From a virus (taxonomy: Duplodnaviria > Heunggongvirae > Uroviricota > Caudoviricetes): a stretch of DNA of 40,589 nt. The position numbers and the translations under genes are program-made. The notes beneath the pieces are model-generated. The model was not told the origin of the DNA. It made no database searches and saw nothing but the letters and a program-made list of their open reading frames with translations. The stretch spans positions 1 through 40,589 of IMG/VR virus record IMGVR_UViG_2718217867_000004; one strand, 5' to 3'. Shown here in pieces: positions 14,865 to 34,915 of the stretch (position 1 is its first letter; each line of letters starts with the position of its first letter).

Positions 14865-15116
14865 TCAGTAACGCACGCTCAGAGACCTTCTCGTCCTTAT
14901 CCCCAGCGCCCGCTGGAGCGTCGCGATCAGCGCCAGCAAATCAGCACTGCTGGCCTGTGAATAAGTCACGGTGCGCGTGCCGTCTCCCTGTGCATAGGAG
15001 AAACTCACGCCACGCCGCCCTGAAAGCAGCTCAATATAGGCCGCCTGAGCTTCATTCAGTGCCGTCTTCAGTTGTTCTTTTGACATTCCGGCAAACACGC
15101 CGGGGGTATTCATCAT
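14865..15116 (-). CDS. Head-tail joining protein gpW-like
   Basis: 83 aa ORF between terminase large subunit and portal, the conserved gpW position. Confidence 0.7.
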   Translation of the reverse strand: MMNTPGVFAGMSKEQLKTALNEAQAAYIELLSGRRGVSFSYAQGDGTRTVTYSQASSADLLALIATLQRALGIRTRRSLSVRY

Positions 15117-17092
15117 CGTCTCACTCCTGCAAGCCTCATATGCAGCGGTATTTTCTTACGGGGTATCTCCGGTGCTTTTGCGCCCGGCATACTTAAACTG
15201 ATTTTTTCTTCCGGCTGCGCGGGAGGCGGCTCCAGGAATGACAGATCCTGCGCCGCCCGTTCAGCCAGACGGTTCAGTTTCAGACCGTGATGCAGCAGCC
15301 CCTTCAGGGCCGCGTAACCGTACACCATGCAGTCCAGCGCCTCATTCGCCCGTCCGGCAGACAGCTCCCAGACACGGTACACCTGCCCGCCGTTCTCCTT
15401 ACGCACCAGACGCTCAGAGAGCAGCTGACTGAAATAATGCAAATCCAGAAACGACGGAAAATGGATACAGCCTGCGGCAGGCGCGCCTGCCGGATCCGGC
15501 TCAATATGGAGCCGGTGCCTGATGTCGTCCTTCGCGGAGTTCACCCCCAGAATGACGGGGCGAAAGGATTTCCGGTTGCGGGAAGAAACACTGCGCGTCG
15601 GCCAGACGGGATTACGTTTGCCGCCAGTGGCGGACTCACCTTTTGTCGCCCAGATACGACGCCCGATACGCGCCTTCGAGAACTCATACACTTTGTTGGT
15701 GTGATGACCGCCCGAGTCATGGCAGACCGCCGAGAGCGTCAGCCCGAAACCGTCAGCCCGCCGCCAGACCTGCTTCAGATACGCATCAAGGCGCTCCCAC
15801 GGCTCTTCTGTTTCAAGGTCACCAAAAATCACGTCATGCGCAATCACCCAGCATTCTTCGTTCATGCCCCAGCCGAGAACGGTGATTTCGAAGCGGTCAT
15901 CCTGCGTATCCACCCCGGCGGTCAGCAGGAGCACGCCATACGGCACCTCCGCTCCCCAGACCTCGACACGGGCAATCAGCCGCTGTTCACTCATCGCAAA
16001 CTCGCCTGCATCCTCGTAAGGCTCGCCCAGCGTGGTATTGATGAATGTCTGGCGCATCAGCGGATCGTCCTTCACCCTCAGCCATTCGGCGACCAGATTC
16101 GGCCAGGAGGCATTTGAGTTCGGGCTGTAGCCCGTCCAGATATGAAAACCGGCATGCCCCCTGAATGGTGCACCGGCACGCCATTCGCCTTTTGCCAGCA
16201 TCCCGGGCAGTTCACTGTGCACAATCACACAGCCGTGGTGACGGCACAGATAGTAAGCGGTCTCCGGCAGCCCGTTACCTTCGCTGTCCTTTTCCCACTT
16301 GATGCCGTAAGGGGTGCTTTTGCTGCCCCACTCCAGCACCTGATATTCACCGCAGTGAGGACAGGGCACGAAGTAGCGGCGCTGATCGCTTTCCAGCCAG
16401 GCTTTTTCAATACGGCTCACGCCTTTCACGGTTGGCGTTGAGCCGAGAACAATCTTGCGGTTCCAGAAGGTTTCGGAACGTTTTGTTCCCAGCGCAATCT
16501 GATCCCCTTCGGACCCTGCGCCCCCTGCCGGATACCCGTCCACCTCATCAAAAAGGATGATGCGGCATGTGATACGGCGAAAACCGCCGGGGGAGTTGGC
16601 CCCGACCAGCGTGAGGTTTGCGCCGTTGGAAAAGGTTTTGCGAAGAATGGTCTGGTTGCTGTTTTTTGCCTTCGGGTCGCCGCTGATGGCTGCCAGCACC
16701 GGCGTGTCGCGCAACATCGGGGCAATTTCGATTTTACTGTAGTCTTCGGCATCCTCCACCCTCGGCTGAACCACCAGGATGGAGGACGGATCATGTGCCA
16801 GGTAATAGCCCACCACATGGTCAAGAATTTTCGTGTATCCCACACGGGCTGATTTCATCACAGACACATACGTGACTGACGGGTCGGTGATGGCATCCAT
16901 TATGCCGTCCTGATAGGGATAGGAGCGGAATTTCCCCGTCTGGGCACTGGTCTCACGGGACAGTACAGCGAAGGTGTTGGCCCACTGGCTTAAGGATAAT
17001 GGCGGCGGAGGCGCAAGATAACGCGGACACGAAAGCAGCGCCTCCTCAAACTGTATCTCCGTGGGTTTCGCGCCTGTCAAATGCAAGTTCAT
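15113..17092 (-). CDS. Terminase large subunit (lambda gpA family)
   Basis: 659 aa; overall sequence typical of gpA-type terminases; overlaps the small subunit gene. Confidence 0.95.
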   Translation of the reverse strand: MNLHLTGAKPTEIQFEEALLSCPRYLAPPPPLSLSQWANTFAVLSRETSAQTGKFRSYPYQDGIMDAITDPSVTYVSVMKSARVGYTKILDHVVGYYLAHDPSSILVVQPRVEDAEDYSKIEIAPMLRDTPVLAAISGDPKAKNSNQTILRKTFSNGANLTLVGANSPGGFRRITCRIILFDEVDGYPAGGAGSEGDQIALGTKRSETFWNRKIVLGSTPTVKGVSRIEKAWLESDQRRYFVPCPHCGEYQVLEWGSKSTPYGIKWEKDSEGNGLPETAYYLCRHHGCVIVHSELPGMLAKGEWRAGAPFRGHAGFHIWTGYSPNSNASWPNLVAEWLRVKDDPLMRQTFINTTLGEPYEDAGEFAMSEQRLIARVEVWGAEVPYGVLLLTAGVDTQDDRFEITVLGWGMNEECWVIAHDVIFGDLETEEPWERLDAYLKQVWRRADGFGLTLSAVCHDSGGHHTNKVYEFSKARIGRRIWATKGESATGGKRNPVWPTRSVSSRNRKSFRPVILGVNSAKDDIRHRLHIEPDPAGAPAAGCIHFPSFLDLHYFSQLLSERLVRKENGGQVYRVWELSAGRANEALDCMVYGYAALKGLLHHGLKLNRLAERAAQDLSFLEPPPAQPEEKISLSMPGAKAPEIPRKKIPLHMRLAGVRR

Positions 17093-17663
17093 TCAGCGCC
17101 TCGTAAATCAGTTCCTGCAATGCCGCCGTGAATCCCTGATCGTCTGTCATCCCCGCCAGCGCCCGCAGACGGGGACCATGTTCCGGCGCAAGGGCAACAA
17201 GGCGCGTCCTCACCCGGGTATACTCCGCCCCGACCCGCTCAATGATGGGTTTCCAGGGAAGCAGTGTTCCTTTCTTTTCGTCATACTCGAGTTTTGCCAG
17301 CAGCGCGAAGTAGTTCTCTTTCATGGTTCTGGCTTCATCGAGCGTCATCATGGCTCCGTGGCTGGCAATGAACTGTTCGACCCGTGCTTCTTTCGATACA
17401 TCAGAGGAGTCATCGTACAGGGCAATGCTGTTACCTTCGTTGTTACCCGGAGTGTTACCTTCGGATGTTACCCTGTTACCTAAAGTGTTACCTTTTTGCT
17501 CATTTTTTATTCGGGTAACAGTTTTCCGGTAACGCCGGATCCGCTCGTTTGAGGCATCAACATCGATGTCCTCACCGTCCAGAACCAGCCAGCCACGGGC
17601 CTTCCACGCCGTTACCGTCTTGCGACTGACACCGTGAAGTTTTGCGAATTCCGCCTGATTCAT
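17046..17663 (-). CDS. Terminase small subunit (Nu1-like, N-terminal HTH)
   Basis: 205 aa starting MNQAEFAKLHGVSRKTVTAWKARGW (HTH comparable to lambda Nu1); contains a GNT-type peptide repeat encoded by GGTAACA nucleotide repeats. Confidence 0.8.
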   Translation of the reverse strand: MNQAEFAKLHGVSRKTVTAWKARGWLVLDGEDIDVDASNERIRRYRKTVTRIKNEQKGNTLGNRVTSEGNTPGNNEGNSIALYDDSSDVSKEARVEQFIASHGAMMTLDEARTMKENYFALLAKLEYDEKKGTLLPWKPIIERVGAEYTRVRTRLVALAPEHGPRLRALAGMTDDQGFTAALQELIYEALNELAFDRRETHGDTV

Positions 17664-17690
17664 CTGTTACCCTCTGTTACCTGTTACCCA
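17664..17690 (-). repeat. Three tandem GGTAACAG repeats immediately upstream of the Nu1 start (candidate cosB/terminase-binding sites)
   Basis: Minus strand reads GGGTAACAGGTAACAGAGGGTAACAG-ATG; six more copies of GGTAACA(N) lie inside Nu1 at about 17440-17500. Confidence 0.5.
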
Positions 17691-17766
17691 AATTTCAAAA
17701 TTTTATAGCTAGCGAAACACCGCGCTCGCGCAATGCCCGTGCAATAAGGTCTCCAGGAAGGACCCG

Positions 17767-17886
17767 TTACCCTGCCAGGCGACAGTGTCGACACCCGCTT
17801 GCGGTTTCAAAAATCTCAAGATAACGATAAATCACAATGCCATCACAAAACCCTGTGATGATTTTTTCACGACTGATGGTTTTCAT
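17767..17886 (-). CDS. Small hypothetical protein (39 aa)
   Basis: ATG with a GAGGAA SD 6 nt upstream, directly after the stop of the upstream 67-aa gene; not in the ORF track (below the size cutoff). Confidence 0.25.
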   Translation of the reverse strand: MKTISREKIITGFCDGIVIYRYLEIFETASGCRHCRLAG

Positions 17887-18098: not shown

Positions 18099-18427
18099 GG
18101 GAATACTCTCCGAATTAAATACACTTCTGGAAAAGATACCACTCTGAAAAAAACTTCAGTCAGTCCCACAGGAAATAGAAGATTTGAAGCGAAGAGTTGC
18201 TGAACTGGAATCGAACCATTGTTCTGCAACCAGCGCACAATTCTGTCCCAAATGCCAAAAAGCGTCTTTTCAGCTCGACAGAACTGAAAATGATCCAACG
18301 TTTGGAGTATTAGGCCTTCAGCGGGACATTTATGTTTGCAGAGAGTGTGGTTACTCTCGCCATGAATCACGTTAATAAAAACGCTGCTGGCACGTTCTTT
18401 CTTCAGGGCAACAATGCCCTGCATCAC
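18095..18427 (-). CDS. Hypothetical protein (110 aa)
   Basis: ATGA overlaps at both ends with flanking same-strand genes support translation; composition is unremarkable; an antisense zinc-ribbon-like ORF (18184-18375, +) competes for this locus. Confidence 0.35.
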   Translation of the reverse strand: MMQGIVALKKERASSVFINVIHGESNHTLCKHKCPAEGLILQTLDHFQFCRAEKTLFGIWDRIVRWLQNNGSIPVQQLFASNLLFPVGLTEVFFRVVSFPEVYLIRRVFP

Positions 18428-19089
18428 TTCGCCGTCTTTAAAGCCTGTTCAAGCGCCACACTCAGCTCCGTCTTCATGAGACGCGATGCCATGTTGTGTG
18501 CCAGCGCCTGATAACCCAGTACCGGCGTGACCGGCAGTGCATCACCAAAACGTATCAACAGCTTTGGTGAGCGGCTTTTTTTGCGGGGAGCGCGTGTGCC
18601 ATTGGGGGAGCGTTTTCTCCGCTTCCTGGTTTTTGCCACTTTTTTCGCTTTCTTACGCTGCCAGACGCCACCAACATCCTCACCATAGTTGTTCGTCACC
18701 TTACCGATGAACACATCCGGTCTGGCCTTCAGCTGTTGCAGTTTTGCCTTTGGCAGGTTGCCGTATTTGTTCAGCCGGATATTTTTCGGGTTCAGTACAG
18801 CTTTCTGCCCCTCACCGAGATAATGCAGCCCGCCCACCTCAAAGGGTTCAAGGTAAGGCACGGCGGTATCCATGATGAACACCCGACCGGTCAGATTGTC
18901 CCTTGTTGCCCCTTTTGAGCGCACCGAGTTCACGGTGAACGGCGTCGGGTTATCCAGCTTCCGGCGAAGGTTTTCTTTCTCTGCCGCTTCAATTTTTCTC
19001 ACCGTGGCAGTGATGGCGCGCGCAGTGGCAAAACGCACCTGCTTCTGCATTCCCAGAAGCTGTCTGTGAAGGTCGTTAAGGTCAGCCAT
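18424..19089 (-). CDS. Basic hypothetical protein (about 221 aa)
   Basis: Start placed at MADLNDL (AGGTGG SD); Lys/Arg-rich segment KKAKKVAKTRKRRKRSPNGTRAPRKKSRSPK suggests nucleic-acid binding; no recognisable catalytic motif. Confidence 0.5.
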   Translation of the reverse strand: MADLNDLHRQLLGMQKQVRFATARAITATVRKIEAAEKENLRRKLDNPTPFTVNSVRSKGATRDNLTGRVFIMDTAVPYLEPFEVGGLHYLGEGQKAVLNPKNIRLNKYGNLPKAKLQQLKARPDVFIGKVTNNYGEDVGGVWQRKKAKKVAKTRKRRKRSPNGTRAPRKKSRSPKLLIRFGDALPVTPVLGYQALAHNMASRLMKTELSVALEQALKTAK

Positions 19090-19148
19090 ATTCCACCTTC
19101 TCATGCTGCATTATCGCAGCCCCTCACTGAAGGGCTGCTGTAATGCTG

Positions 19149-33420: not shown

Positions 33421-33845
33421 TCAATGCACCGCCACGGCATTTCCTGCCGGACCACCGCGATTCATCTGGTCGAACAGAACGATCGCTGATGCAACGAACT
33501 CATCGATATCTTTCACCAGCCGATCCCGTCGCTCGACAATCTCCCGGTGATACTCCGAACTGTGACTACGCATTCGGGCCACCAGCGGTGGCGGCATTGC
33601 CTTTTCGATCGCTGGTAACAACGCCTGAATTTTTTAACCGCATCAGGAGTATCTTTCTCCACCCAGCGGAAAATTTTCTGAGTATTGCGAGCCAGGGCTT
33701 CTGGGTGTGAATCGTCGTACAGTTCCGGAAACGTCATACCCAGCTCAAAATAAGCCCGGGTTATTTCAGCCGCCGGAACTTTTTCACCGTCCGGATACGC
33801 CCAGGCATTCATCGCCATGCGGATGTGTTCATGCTTGATTTTCAT
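33421..33845 (-). pseudogene. YdaT-like gene split by a frameshift in an A6 tract
   Basis: N-terminal ORF (33513-33845, MKIKHEHI...) and a +1-frame ORF (33421-33621) overlap; inserting one A in the AAAAAA run at about 33628-33633 joins them into a single ORF of about 140 aa. Confidence 0.55.
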
Positions 33846-34057
33846 GAATCATTCTTTCCTTCGTTCGAGGTGTTATCCTGCTTCTTGTAAAGTTCTGGAT
33901 TGTATTTCAATTCACCGTTAGTAATTTCATCCAGCTCCATTGCGCGAAGTTTGGGAATAACTGCTTTCCACCGCACAACAGCCACATGTGAAATTCCAAG
34001 AGCCTCAGCTACTAGTCGCTTTTTTTTGAAATAGCGCAGAACATCATCTTTGAACAT
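33842..34057 (-). CDS. Cro-like HTH regulator (YdaS/Cro family)
   Basis: 71 aa with HTH KKKRLVAEALGISHVAVVRWK; divergent from cI across an operator-bearing gap; ATGA overlap with the YdaT-like gene. Confidence 0.8.
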   Translation of the reverse strand: MFKDDVLRYFKKKRLVAEALGISHVAVVRWKAVIPKLRAMELDEITNGELKYNPELYKKQDNTSNEGKNDS

Positions 34058-34085: not shown

Positions 34086-34150
34086 GGTAACAATAGTTAC
34101 ATAATGATGTCAACCATAGTAACATTACTTGGTAGTAACATTGGTTACAT
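34086..34150. promoter_or_regulatory. OR-like operator cluster between cro and cI
   Basis: Three sites with inverted GTAAC/GTTAC half-sites (GGTAACAATAGTTAC, GTAACATTACTTGG, GTAACATTGGTTAC) in the divergent promoter region. Confidence 0.6.
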
Positions 34151-34823
34151 GAAAAACACTATCAGCGAACGTATTCGGAATCGTCGAAAAGACGTTGGAC
34201 TAACTCAACAGCAGGTTGCGAAAGCAATCGGCATATCTCGCGTATCCGTAACAAAATGGGAAAATGGCTCTTCAAAACCTGACGGTGAGAATTTGCATCT
34301 GCTGTCAAAATTGCTTTCCAAATCTCCTGAATGGATTCTTTATGGAAAGGATGGTCACGATAAAACCGACGATCTGCGTCTGAATCAGCACCTTTACATT
34401 AGTGACAACATCGCCCGGTTGCCCGTTTTAACGTGGGAACAGGCTGGTTATTGGGATATGAGTTGCCCAGTAACCGAGATTCCTGGTATTAAGAATTGGG
34501 TTGATGTCATGACAAAAACCGCTGAAAACTCTTTTTTATTGCGCGTTGAGGGAGATGCGATGACGAACTCTAACGGCCTCCCAACCATCCCCGACGGATC
34601 TACCGTGCTGATCACTCCATGCTCAAGTAACATTAGAGAACTGGTGGGAAAAATAATCTTAATCCAATTGGAAGGAACGCCGAACGTAACACTAAAAAAA
34701 GTTGCGATTGACGGACCAAACATCTATCTGCTGTCACTGAATCCGCTTTACAAACCCATTGAACTGAATGGTGGTTACACTATTAAAGGTAAAGTTTCAC
34801 AAATACATCAATATTTAGACTGA
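34149..34823 (+). CDS. cI-like repressor (N-terminal HTH, C-terminal S24 LexA-like peptidase domain)
   Basis: HTH (LTQQQVAKAIGISRVSVTKWENG) and S24 autocleavage domain (VEGDAMT...KGK); start chosen at MKNTIS just after the operators; the track ORF begins at 34050. Confidence 0.85.
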   Translation: MKNTISERIRNRRKDVGLTQQQVAKAIGISRVSVTKWENGSSKPDGENLHLLSKLLSKSPEWILYGKDGHDKTDDLRLNQHLYISDNIARLPVLTWEQAGYWDMSCPVTEIPGIKNWVDVMTKTAENSFLLRVEGDAMTNSNGLPTIPDGSTVLITPCSSNIRELVGKIILIQLEGTPNVTLKKVAIDGPNIYLLSLNPLYKPIELNGGYTIKGKVSQIHQYLD

Positions 34824-34874: not shown

Positions 34875-34915
34875 TGCAACATCATGTTGACTTTGCTGGT
34901 AACTCTTGTTACCTT
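34875..34915. promoter_or_regulatory. OL-like operator sites / early promoter region
   Basis: Palindromes CAACATCATGTTG and GGTAACTCTTGTTACC (same GTAAC half-site as OR) upstream of the rightward early operon. Confidence 0.5.

Follow-up and report, generated by a model that had tools for sequence, protein, structure and literature searches.

We analyzed a 40,589-base stretch of DNA from a virus of the Caudoviricetes (IMG/VR record IMGVR_UViG_2718217867_000004, positions 1 to 40,589; hereafter, the window), an Escherichia coli prophage, in which copies of the heptamer GGTAACA gather around the start of terS, the gene for the small terminase subunit. These heptamers are probably the R elements of a lambda-type cos site, that is, binding sites for the small terminase (TerS), with the cosB portion of the site split around the terS start codon. 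Read along the minus strand, the order of elements is cosQ, cosN, an I2-like block, three heptamers at the R3 position, the ATG and the codons of a domain of the winged helix-turn-helix type (wHTH), two inverted heptamers and six direct heptamers. The anatomy of the region, its homology to the lambda cos, the constraint on the repeats at the DNA level and their covariation with the wHTH class of TerS support this reading, all of them through comparison of sequences.

Anatomy of the cos region and its heptamer arrays

A nucleotide search of the phage collection returned no relative of the window, and a protein-level search gave the two closest sequenced phages, Citrobacter phage phiNP and Serratia phage vB_SspM_BZS1 (BZS1), whose TerS proteins are 57-59% identical. 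We retrieved the loci that encode relatives (52 genome loci, and 80 plus 80 viral contigs); loci of the window's own type form group A, with 92 unique loci. In the window, GGTAACA occurs 16 times, compared to 3.26 +/- 1.66 times in shuffled sequences (maximum 8), and 10 of these 16 copies fall within 17429-17688. The hexamer GGTAAC occurs 37 times where 12.2 +/- 3.2 copies are expected. Thirteen of them, including ten that read GGTAACA, are packed into the 342 bp between 17430 and 17771, for which the chance expectation is about 0.1. The elements of the region are as follows.

17766-17771, minus strand: extra GGTAAC(G) copy, immediately left of cosQ, at -108 from the terS ATG
17758-17765, minus strand: cosQ-like heptamer GGGTCCTT (8 bp as written), the sole match in the window
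17725-17738, minus strand: putative cosN, the cohesive-end (nicking) region GGGCATTGCGCGAG, aligned with lambda GGGCGGCGACCT and BZS1 GCATTGCGCGCC
17690-17717, minus strand: conserved cosN-proximal block, I2-like, TTTCGCTAGCTATAAAATTTTGAAATTT, aligned with lambda GGGTTTTCGCTATTTATGAAAATTTT
17682-17688, 17675-17681 and 17665-17671, minus strand: putative proximal R cluster, three GGTAACAG heptamers about bp 51-74 from the nick
17611-17616, minus strand: GGTAAC(G) copy in the recognition-helix codons (K-T-V-T, ACG GTA ACG)
17514-17520 (GGTAACA) and 17528-17534 (GGTAACG), plus strand: two inverted heptamers at +130 and +144 of terS, about bp 205-225 from the nick
17429-17492, minus strand: distal array of six direct GGTAACA copies, spaced 8-13 bp apart, in codons of the disordered TerS linker
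17046-17663, minus strand: terS, small terminase, 205 aa (phrog_57 terS, E = 9.5e-28), overlapping the start of terL
15113-17092, minus strand: terL, gpA-type large terminase (Pfam GpA_ATPase 2.5e-75, GpA_nuclease 4.3e-81)

We aligned the cos regions of the window, BZS1, phiNP, six other loci and phage lambda. The cosQ site is a highly conserved 7-bp element (Feiss 2015, PMC4669245), placed about 30 bp left of cosN in lambda-like cos sites, and GGGTCCTT is identical in lambda and in every related locus aligned, with a constant distance to cosN. At cosN, the window's GGGCATTGCGCG matches the lambda cohesive end GGGCGGCGACCT at 6 of 12 positions between conserved flanks, where the ends themselves were measured in the relative BZS1 only. 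The BZS1 record opens with its annotated 12-nt cohesive end, GCATTGCGCGCC, located 62 nt ahead of terS; this 12-nt 5′ end was determined using PhageTerm and confirmed when the cos junction and the ends of the phage were sequenced (PMC7556043). The I2-like block is common to all TerS specificity classes (described below) and is recognizable in lambda, and homology between the classes stops right after it, exactly at the start of the first heptamer. In all classes, the first pair of heptamers lies about bp 51-64 from the nick, which is the R3 position of lambda and N15 (critical bp 55-63 in lambda, bp 48-59 in N15; PMC4669245, PMC9026076). As judged from this alignment, the region is a lambda-homologous cos site with its cosQ, cosN and I2-like block. 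In the cosN region (17725-17738), the distance to the first heptamer is shifted by 1 bp, inside the tolerance reported for lambda.

The first-pass annotation had counted nine heptamers, three abutting the start codon and six within the gene at about 17440-17500, where they would encode a GNT/GN peptide repeat. The array is real, and the three upstream copies lie as claimed, the last one stopping 2 nt short of the terS ATG (17663-17661) and overlapping its ribosome-binding site, the Shine-Dalgarno region (17665-17671). Four further copies had been missed: the two inverted ones, the one at 17611-17616 and the one at 17766-17771. The six in-gene copies are also present (17486-17492, 17474-17480, 17466-17472, 17453-17459, 17441-17447 and 17429-17435), with the last one just outside the range given. 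Across them the gene encodes GNT LGN RVT SE GNT PGN NE GNS; five of the six copies read Gly-Asn, and the copy at 17466-17472 is in another frame and reads Val-Thr within R-V-T. A scan for promoters and terminators found no element on the gene strand close to the repeats.

Based on their orientation and place, the inverted heptamers at 17514-17534 are the putative counterpart of the lambda R2 and N15 rR2 sites. The copy that abuts cosQ (GGTAACG, 17766-17771) is present in only six loci, an Escherichia coli subgroup, and the copy in the HTH-coding segment (GGTAACG, 17611-17616; at +47 in 34 of the 92 group A loci) may be incidental. The peptide K-T-V-T occurs twice in TerS, at residues 15-18 and 47-50 (17608-17619 and 17511-17522), with different codons. 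ACG-GTA-ACG creates a forward GGTAAC in 34/92 loci and ACT-GTT-ACC creates an inverted one in 88/92.

In an AlphaFold2 model (mean pLDDT, the predicted local distance difference test, of 70.5), TerS comprises a wHTH at residues 1-47, a disordered linker at residues 48-86 and a helical C-terminal domain. The modeled wHTH elements are helices 3-10 and 14-23, a hairpin at 27-32 and a helix at 35-49. The linker has a pLDDT below 50 and coincides exactly with the segment encoded by the repeats; according to the model, a disordered linker of this kind could tolerate imposed codons and changes in length. The gene had been labeled Nu1, which is right insofar as its product is a small terminase (phrog_57) and imprecise as a family name. 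TerS does not match Pfam Phage_Nu1 (PF07471) even at E <= 10, whereas lambda Nu1 scores 2.5e-100, and its comparison to N15 gp1 using hhalign reached a probability of 1.9%, with no detectable similarity. Searches of Pfam, NCBIfam and PDB sequences yielded weak helix-turn-helix (HTH) matches only and assigned no TerS family. From these comparisons, TerS appears to work like Nu1 yet to stand outside the Pfam Nu1 family. The terS product is widely named 'RNA polymerase subunit sigma-70' in NCBI and UniRef, a name that we consider a mis-annotation derived from the HTH, because the gene's position, PHROG match and context point to a small terminase.

Constraint on the repeats and covariation with the recognition helix

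Within group A, the heptamers keep fixed positions relative to the terS ATG. The upstream copies are found at -27, -20 and -8, with all three in 75/92 loci; the inverted copy at +144 is present in 88/92; and direct in-gene copies begin at +171, +183, +195, +207/210, +222 and +234, with four to six copies in 84/92 loci. In the 29 loci with proteins that share 57-60% identity with that of the window, every Gly-Asn pair of the linker (132/132) is coded GGT-AAC and is followed by a codon starting with A. Elsewhere in these 29 loci, GGT makes up 33% of Gly codons and AAC makes up 57% of Asn codons, and Gly-Asn pairs outside the linker are written GGTAAC in only 4/29. The seventh base of the heptamer is A in 99-100% of copies, compared to a conservation of only 33-64% at the flanking positions. 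The in-gene copies are constrained as DNA and not as protein, because the Gly-Asn codon pairs of the linker are invariant and because another class of these proteins reads Val-Asn or Val-Asp at the same place. An alignment of related terminase regions had been suggested as a check for conservation beyond the protein's own needs, and it shows that the repeats are kept at the DNA level.

The number of repeats varies among near-identical E. coli prophages (P0001-P0017, L062 and L063), which carry 5 to 11 direct in-gene copies and TerS proteins of 201-251 aa. The variation in TerS length comes from tandem duplications in the linker, either of 12-nt units or of a 75-nt unit (KKTVTR.KNEQKGN.LGNRVTPEGN) that holds one inverted and three direct heptamers. 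Among another set of loci (L033, L040, L041, L046, L050, and L047, L048, L051-L055), several terS genes are truncated or frameshifted (85-124 aa), with the shift in the repeat region, and in many contigs of draft assemblies terS is interrupted at a contig end. These broken open reading frames (ORFs) could stem from decay of the prophages, from slippage, or from assemblies breaking at the repeats or in sequence that several prophages have in common.

The identity of the heptamer changes together with the recognition helix of TerS. The most frequently repeated 7-mer of a locus matched its recognition-helix class in 112 of 112 unique loci, with zero exceptions: the helix VSRKT[VIA]TxWK goes with GGTAACA in 101 loci, GV[DN]RKTIxRWI with TGGGACA in 10 and GVTRQTIYDW with GTGTCAA in one. 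Every class has its own motif in 5-13 copies, and the architecture is the same in all. Distant viral contigs with a GC content of 57-69% again pair VSRKTVTxWK with GGTAACA, both upstream of the gene and in the linker. In a further class, from distant high-GC contigs, the helix VSK[PQ]AV[GS]KW (VSKPAVGKW or VSKQAVSKW) is paired with GGTT[A/G]AC, which lies upstream of the ATG and in the linker and, in the latter, is translated as Val-Asn or Val-Asp; in L281, L285, L290 and L293, all GGTTAAC/GGTTGAC copies of each ~3-kb locus are confined to these upstream and linker clusters.

Natural domain swaps separate the wHTH from the remainder of the protein. Group B has another N-terminal domain (MSISKYAKHVGVNRKTITRWI...) joined to an unchanged C-terminal domain; GGTAACA is absent from it, and TGGGACA, in 5-10 copies, occupies the same cos layout. 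In group C, the N-terminal domain is of a third kind and occurs together with GTGTCAA/TTGACAC. Group D has the converse arrangement, a window-type N-terminal domain joined to an unrelated C-terminal domain, and it keeps GGTAACA with all copies upstream of the gene: two direct copies at the R3 position, a spacer of 70-83% AT, two inverted copies, three or four direct copies and then the ATG. The spacer between the R3-position and inverted copies has this same AT content of 70-83% in group B, and it is coding DNA in group A. In pairwise blastn comparisons, two stretches are common to groups A and B, one running from cosQ through cosN and I2 to the first heptamer and the other covering the C-terminal half of terS; groups B and C differ solely between -164 and +141, which comprises the repeats and the 47-residue wHTH; and a group A locus (L024) matches a group D locus (L044) at 89.5% identity between -239 and +140, the two parting at the start of the in-gene array.

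L023 and L024, both from Xenorhabdus vietnamensis, carry a full upstream 'complex' cosB (two direct, two inverted and three direct copies) as well as an in-gene array of inverted and direct copies, and may be intermediates between the two cosB architectures. Three additional GGTAAC copies, some 20-45 bp to the left of cosQ and in the 3′-terminal part of an upstream ORF, are found in L008, L013, L036 and L045, which are Xenorhabdus and Photorhabdus loci; L036 has them although its TerS belongs to the TGGGACA class. These extra copies might be left over from an exchange of cassettes or act as an element of the right end.

A proposed split cosB and its alternatives

We propose the following course of events for a cosB split in this manner. 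The N-terminal wHTH domains of an oligomeric TerS would bind the heptamers, and the cosN-proximal cluster would hold the gpA-type TerL at a fixed distance from cosN, leading to staggered nicks. The distal inverted and direct arrays, another 130-240 bp inward, would join through looping or through wrapping around the TerS oligomer, and they might then stabilize the post-cleavage complex on the left chromosome end, as lambda R2/R1 do and as N15 rR2 is proposed to do. With the distal sites in coding DNA, the linker would therefore be forced to read Gly-Asn followed by an A-starting codon. Binding, looping and the in-gene array's contribution to packaging are the parts of this account that we infer. 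The first-pass annotation had offered the array as either a cosB or a pac element for the small terminase. Its first option has strong comparative support in the R3 position, the covariation with the wHTH, the domain swaps and the DNA-level constraint, while its second conflicts with the measured 12-nt 5′ cohesive ends of BZS1 (PMC7556043), the gpA-type TerL and the lambda-like cosQ and cosN.

The layout resembles lambda in several respects: an identical cosQ heptamer, a homologous cosN flank and I2-like block, a first TerS-type repeat at the R3 distance with inverted and then direct elements further in, a gpA-type TerL, an N-terminal wHTH in TerS and an overlap of terS with terL. It differs in its putative R units, which here are 7 bp long and present in 10-13 copies, compared to three sites of about 16 bp in lambda, and in the start of terS, which lies about 76 bp from the nick here and 191 bp in lambda. 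In lambda, IHF brings R3 close to the inverted R2, and R1 is accessory; here, wHTH codons take the place of the I1/IHF spacer, and the distal sites are coding.

Phage N15 is a closer parallel than lambda. Its 'simple' cosB has only R3 upstream, with the inverted rR2 inside the TerS gene at bp 249-260 (PMC4669245). Likewise, terS starts a short way past cosN (bp 89 in N15, about bp 76 here), R3-position elements are the only ones upstream, and the inverted copies at +130/+144 (about bp 205-225) are inside terS. N15 has a single rR2, whereas here 4-11 direct copies are added and read as a peptide repeat, and the R sequences are unrelated (N15 R3, GAGGTTGTTGTT, versus GGTAACA). Group A, with its in-gene sites, and group D, with all sites upstream and the same recognition helix, mirror N15 and Monarch, whose 'complex' cosB has the N15 specificity (PMC4669245). 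By analogy, the origin by unequal crossover that Feiss proposed for N15 would fit L023 and L024, which have both layouts.

The window resembles pac phages in having putative TerS recognition sites inside the TerS gene and short repeats in clusters. The pac site of phage P1 has hexamer clusters on both sides of its cut. In P22 gene 3 and in SPP1 pacL/pacR, pac sites lie within small-terminase genes (PMC4669245). Those phages package by headful, whereas the relative BZS1 has defined 12-nt cohesive ends, and here, unlike pac sites, the cut is outside and upstream of the terS gene.

Several observations weigh against the split-cosB reading. The covariation is partly confounded by physical linkage, as adjacent repeats and wHTH codons would be co-inherited anyway; the point that counts is that the block exchanged in the swaps encodes nothing besides the repeats and the wHTH. 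There is no exact IHF consensus (WATCAANNNNTTR) between the repeat clusters of the window and the relatives examined. The fold evidence is also weak. The hhalign comparison of TerS to lambda Nu1 aligned only HTH residues 2-32 with a probability of 54%, and a Foldseek search of the PDB with the TerS N-terminal domain gave only non-significant wHTH matches (E >= 0.4). The N15 in-gene rR2 is not essential (PMC4669245), and because of this the in-gene array may, by analogy, contribute only marginally. The best of the weak fold matches are Pukovnik Xis, BldC-DNA complexes, MerR and RacA. Xis and BldC bind direct repeats head-to-tail, a mode that would suit direct heptamers about 12 bp apart; Xis, BldC and MerR differ from TerS in being regulators or excisionases and not terminase subunits.

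The same dispensability of rR2 might suggest that TerS uses the heptamers mainly to regulate its own operon, as a roadblock or translational brake on terS and terL, and not for packaging. The overlap of the third upstream copy with the Shine-Dalgarno sequence, ending 2 nt before the ATG, and the position of the in-gene array on the path of transcription are consistent with such a brake. We nonetheless consider it unlikely as the main role: the arrays of groups D and B are wholly upstream of the gene, in the lambda-like succession of R3, AT-rich spacer, inverted R and direct R that is typical of cosB, and the first cluster holds its R3 distance from cosN in every class. Autoregulation could coexist with packaging, and would not replace it. 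It is far less probable still that the in-gene repeats are a protein feature, a flexible Gly-Asn linker whose DNA identity reflects recent duplication or homogenization. The linker uses just one of eight possible Gly-Asn codon pairs, then A, across genera with proteins only 57-60% identical; the 5-nt spacers between heptamers are not conserved; and the same heptamer is repeated in upstream non-coding DNA and in another frame (Val-Thr). Moreover, the other class has GGTTAAC/GGTTGAC as Val-Asn/Val-Asp at the same place, and group D, with the same wHTH, has a linker without Gly-Asn and its repeats upstream. These points outweigh the predicted disorder of the linker and a copy number that varies in near-identical E. 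coli prophages (201-251 aa), as active duplication and slippage would produce. Because cos regions of phages are mosaic, and because one locus with a TGGGACA-class TerS has a GGTAAC triplet left of cosQ, the heptamers might instead be non-functional hitch-hikers, relics of cos-cassette recombination or sites for an unidentified host factor. This we regard as very unlikely, as 92 unique loci, from Enterobacterales to contigs of 57-69% GC, retain the same positions and sequence, and several independent motif classes, each with 5-13 repeats, share one architecture; the motif of a host factor would not switch when the phage wHTH does.

A last alternative concerns the phage repressor, as the first-pass annotation had noted that the core GTAAC is also the half-site of the operators in the immunity region, while treating any link as speculative. 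The genes concerned are the following.

34149-34823: cI-like gene
33842-34057, minus strand: cro-like gene

The shared half-site is correct as sequence: perfect GTAAC-N4-GTTAC palindromes occur in the whole window at 34087, 34135 and 34899 only, each within the immunity region, and the full GGTAACA is present in three of the six half-sites. The repressor HTH (TQQQVAKAIGISRVSVTKWENG) and the TerS HTH (NQAEFAKLHGVSRKTVTAWKAR) are identical at 9 of 22 positions, a similarity that might be why both proteins recognize the GTAAC core. It is nevertheless extremely unlikely that the cI-like repressor binds the repeats, or that they link packaging to immunity. The terS region (17400-17800) contains no GTAAC-N4-GTTAC palindrome, nor any copy inverted with N4 spacing, and over 112 loci the heptamer goes with the wHTH class of TerS. 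BZS1 and phiNP keep their GGTAACA arrays yet have no GTAAC-N4-GTTAC anywhere in their whole genomes, and in both the cI HTH sequences differ and TGCGCA/ACGCA-type motifs lie between cI and cro. The shared core is best treated as a coincidence, since the operators of relatives are unrelated even where their cos repeats are retained; at most, it would reflect similar HTH chemistry. The immunity region (34087-34148, 34899-34912) also contains the related element AGTAACATTACT.

Novelty and neighboring features

Some of this is already known, namely cos, cosB with its R elements, and an accessory site within a gene (N15 rR2). What appears to be new is a multi-copy R element of 7 bp, arrays in linker codons that impose a peptide repeat, a polymorphism in the number of in-gene sites and at least four matched helix/heptamer classes. 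The BZS1 paper (PMC7556043) does not mention the heptamer repeats, and full-text literature searches found no earlier description of them, although most papers in subscription journals were outside their reach, so that an earlier report is possible.

On balance, we favor the view that these loci represent a large undescribed group of lambda-type cos phages whose cosB consists of arrays of 7-bp TerS sites that dictate the linker peptide, with a recognition code of at least four pairs. The group would range from Enterobacterales prophages to high-GC contigs, with arrays that often straddle the wHTH codons and continue in the linker. If this is true, the array sets the linker peptide, Gly-Asn for GGTAACA and Val-Asn/Val-Asp for GGTTAAC/GGTTGAC, and duplications would alter the number of DNA sites and the length of the TerS linker simultaneously. 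It would be a case of overlapping codes, where a protein-binding DNA array determines which codons a disordered linker uses and which amino acids it is composed of.

Only three packaging specificities have been characterized in lambda-like cos phages, those of lambda, 21 and N15 (PMC4669245). At least four helix/heptamer pairs would be a simple natural recognition code for packaging specificity, and its diversity would extend far beyond these three. Packaging specificity determines which DNA is encapsidated by a phage or by a satellite that hijacks it. With matched pairs of helix and 7-bp site and clean natural swaps, the TerS recognition code can be put to a direct test, and cosmids, transducing particles and phage therapy chassis could be given engineered specificities. 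The layout of the motifs also offers a simple means of locating cos in prophages of this group.

Two further genes lie near cos. Just upstream of it and away from the tail genes, 18424-19104 (minus strand) encodes a 226-aa protein that matches phrog_1924, 'minor tail protein' (4.3e-51). Its BZS1 homologue, p72, occupies the same conserved position, and its structural role was questioned by the authors (PMC7556043). At 18184-18375 (plus strand), a 63-aa ORF with a CxxC...CxxC pattern weakly matches an HNH-endonuclease PHROG (4e-4); it may encode a zinc-ribbon protein or be spurious.

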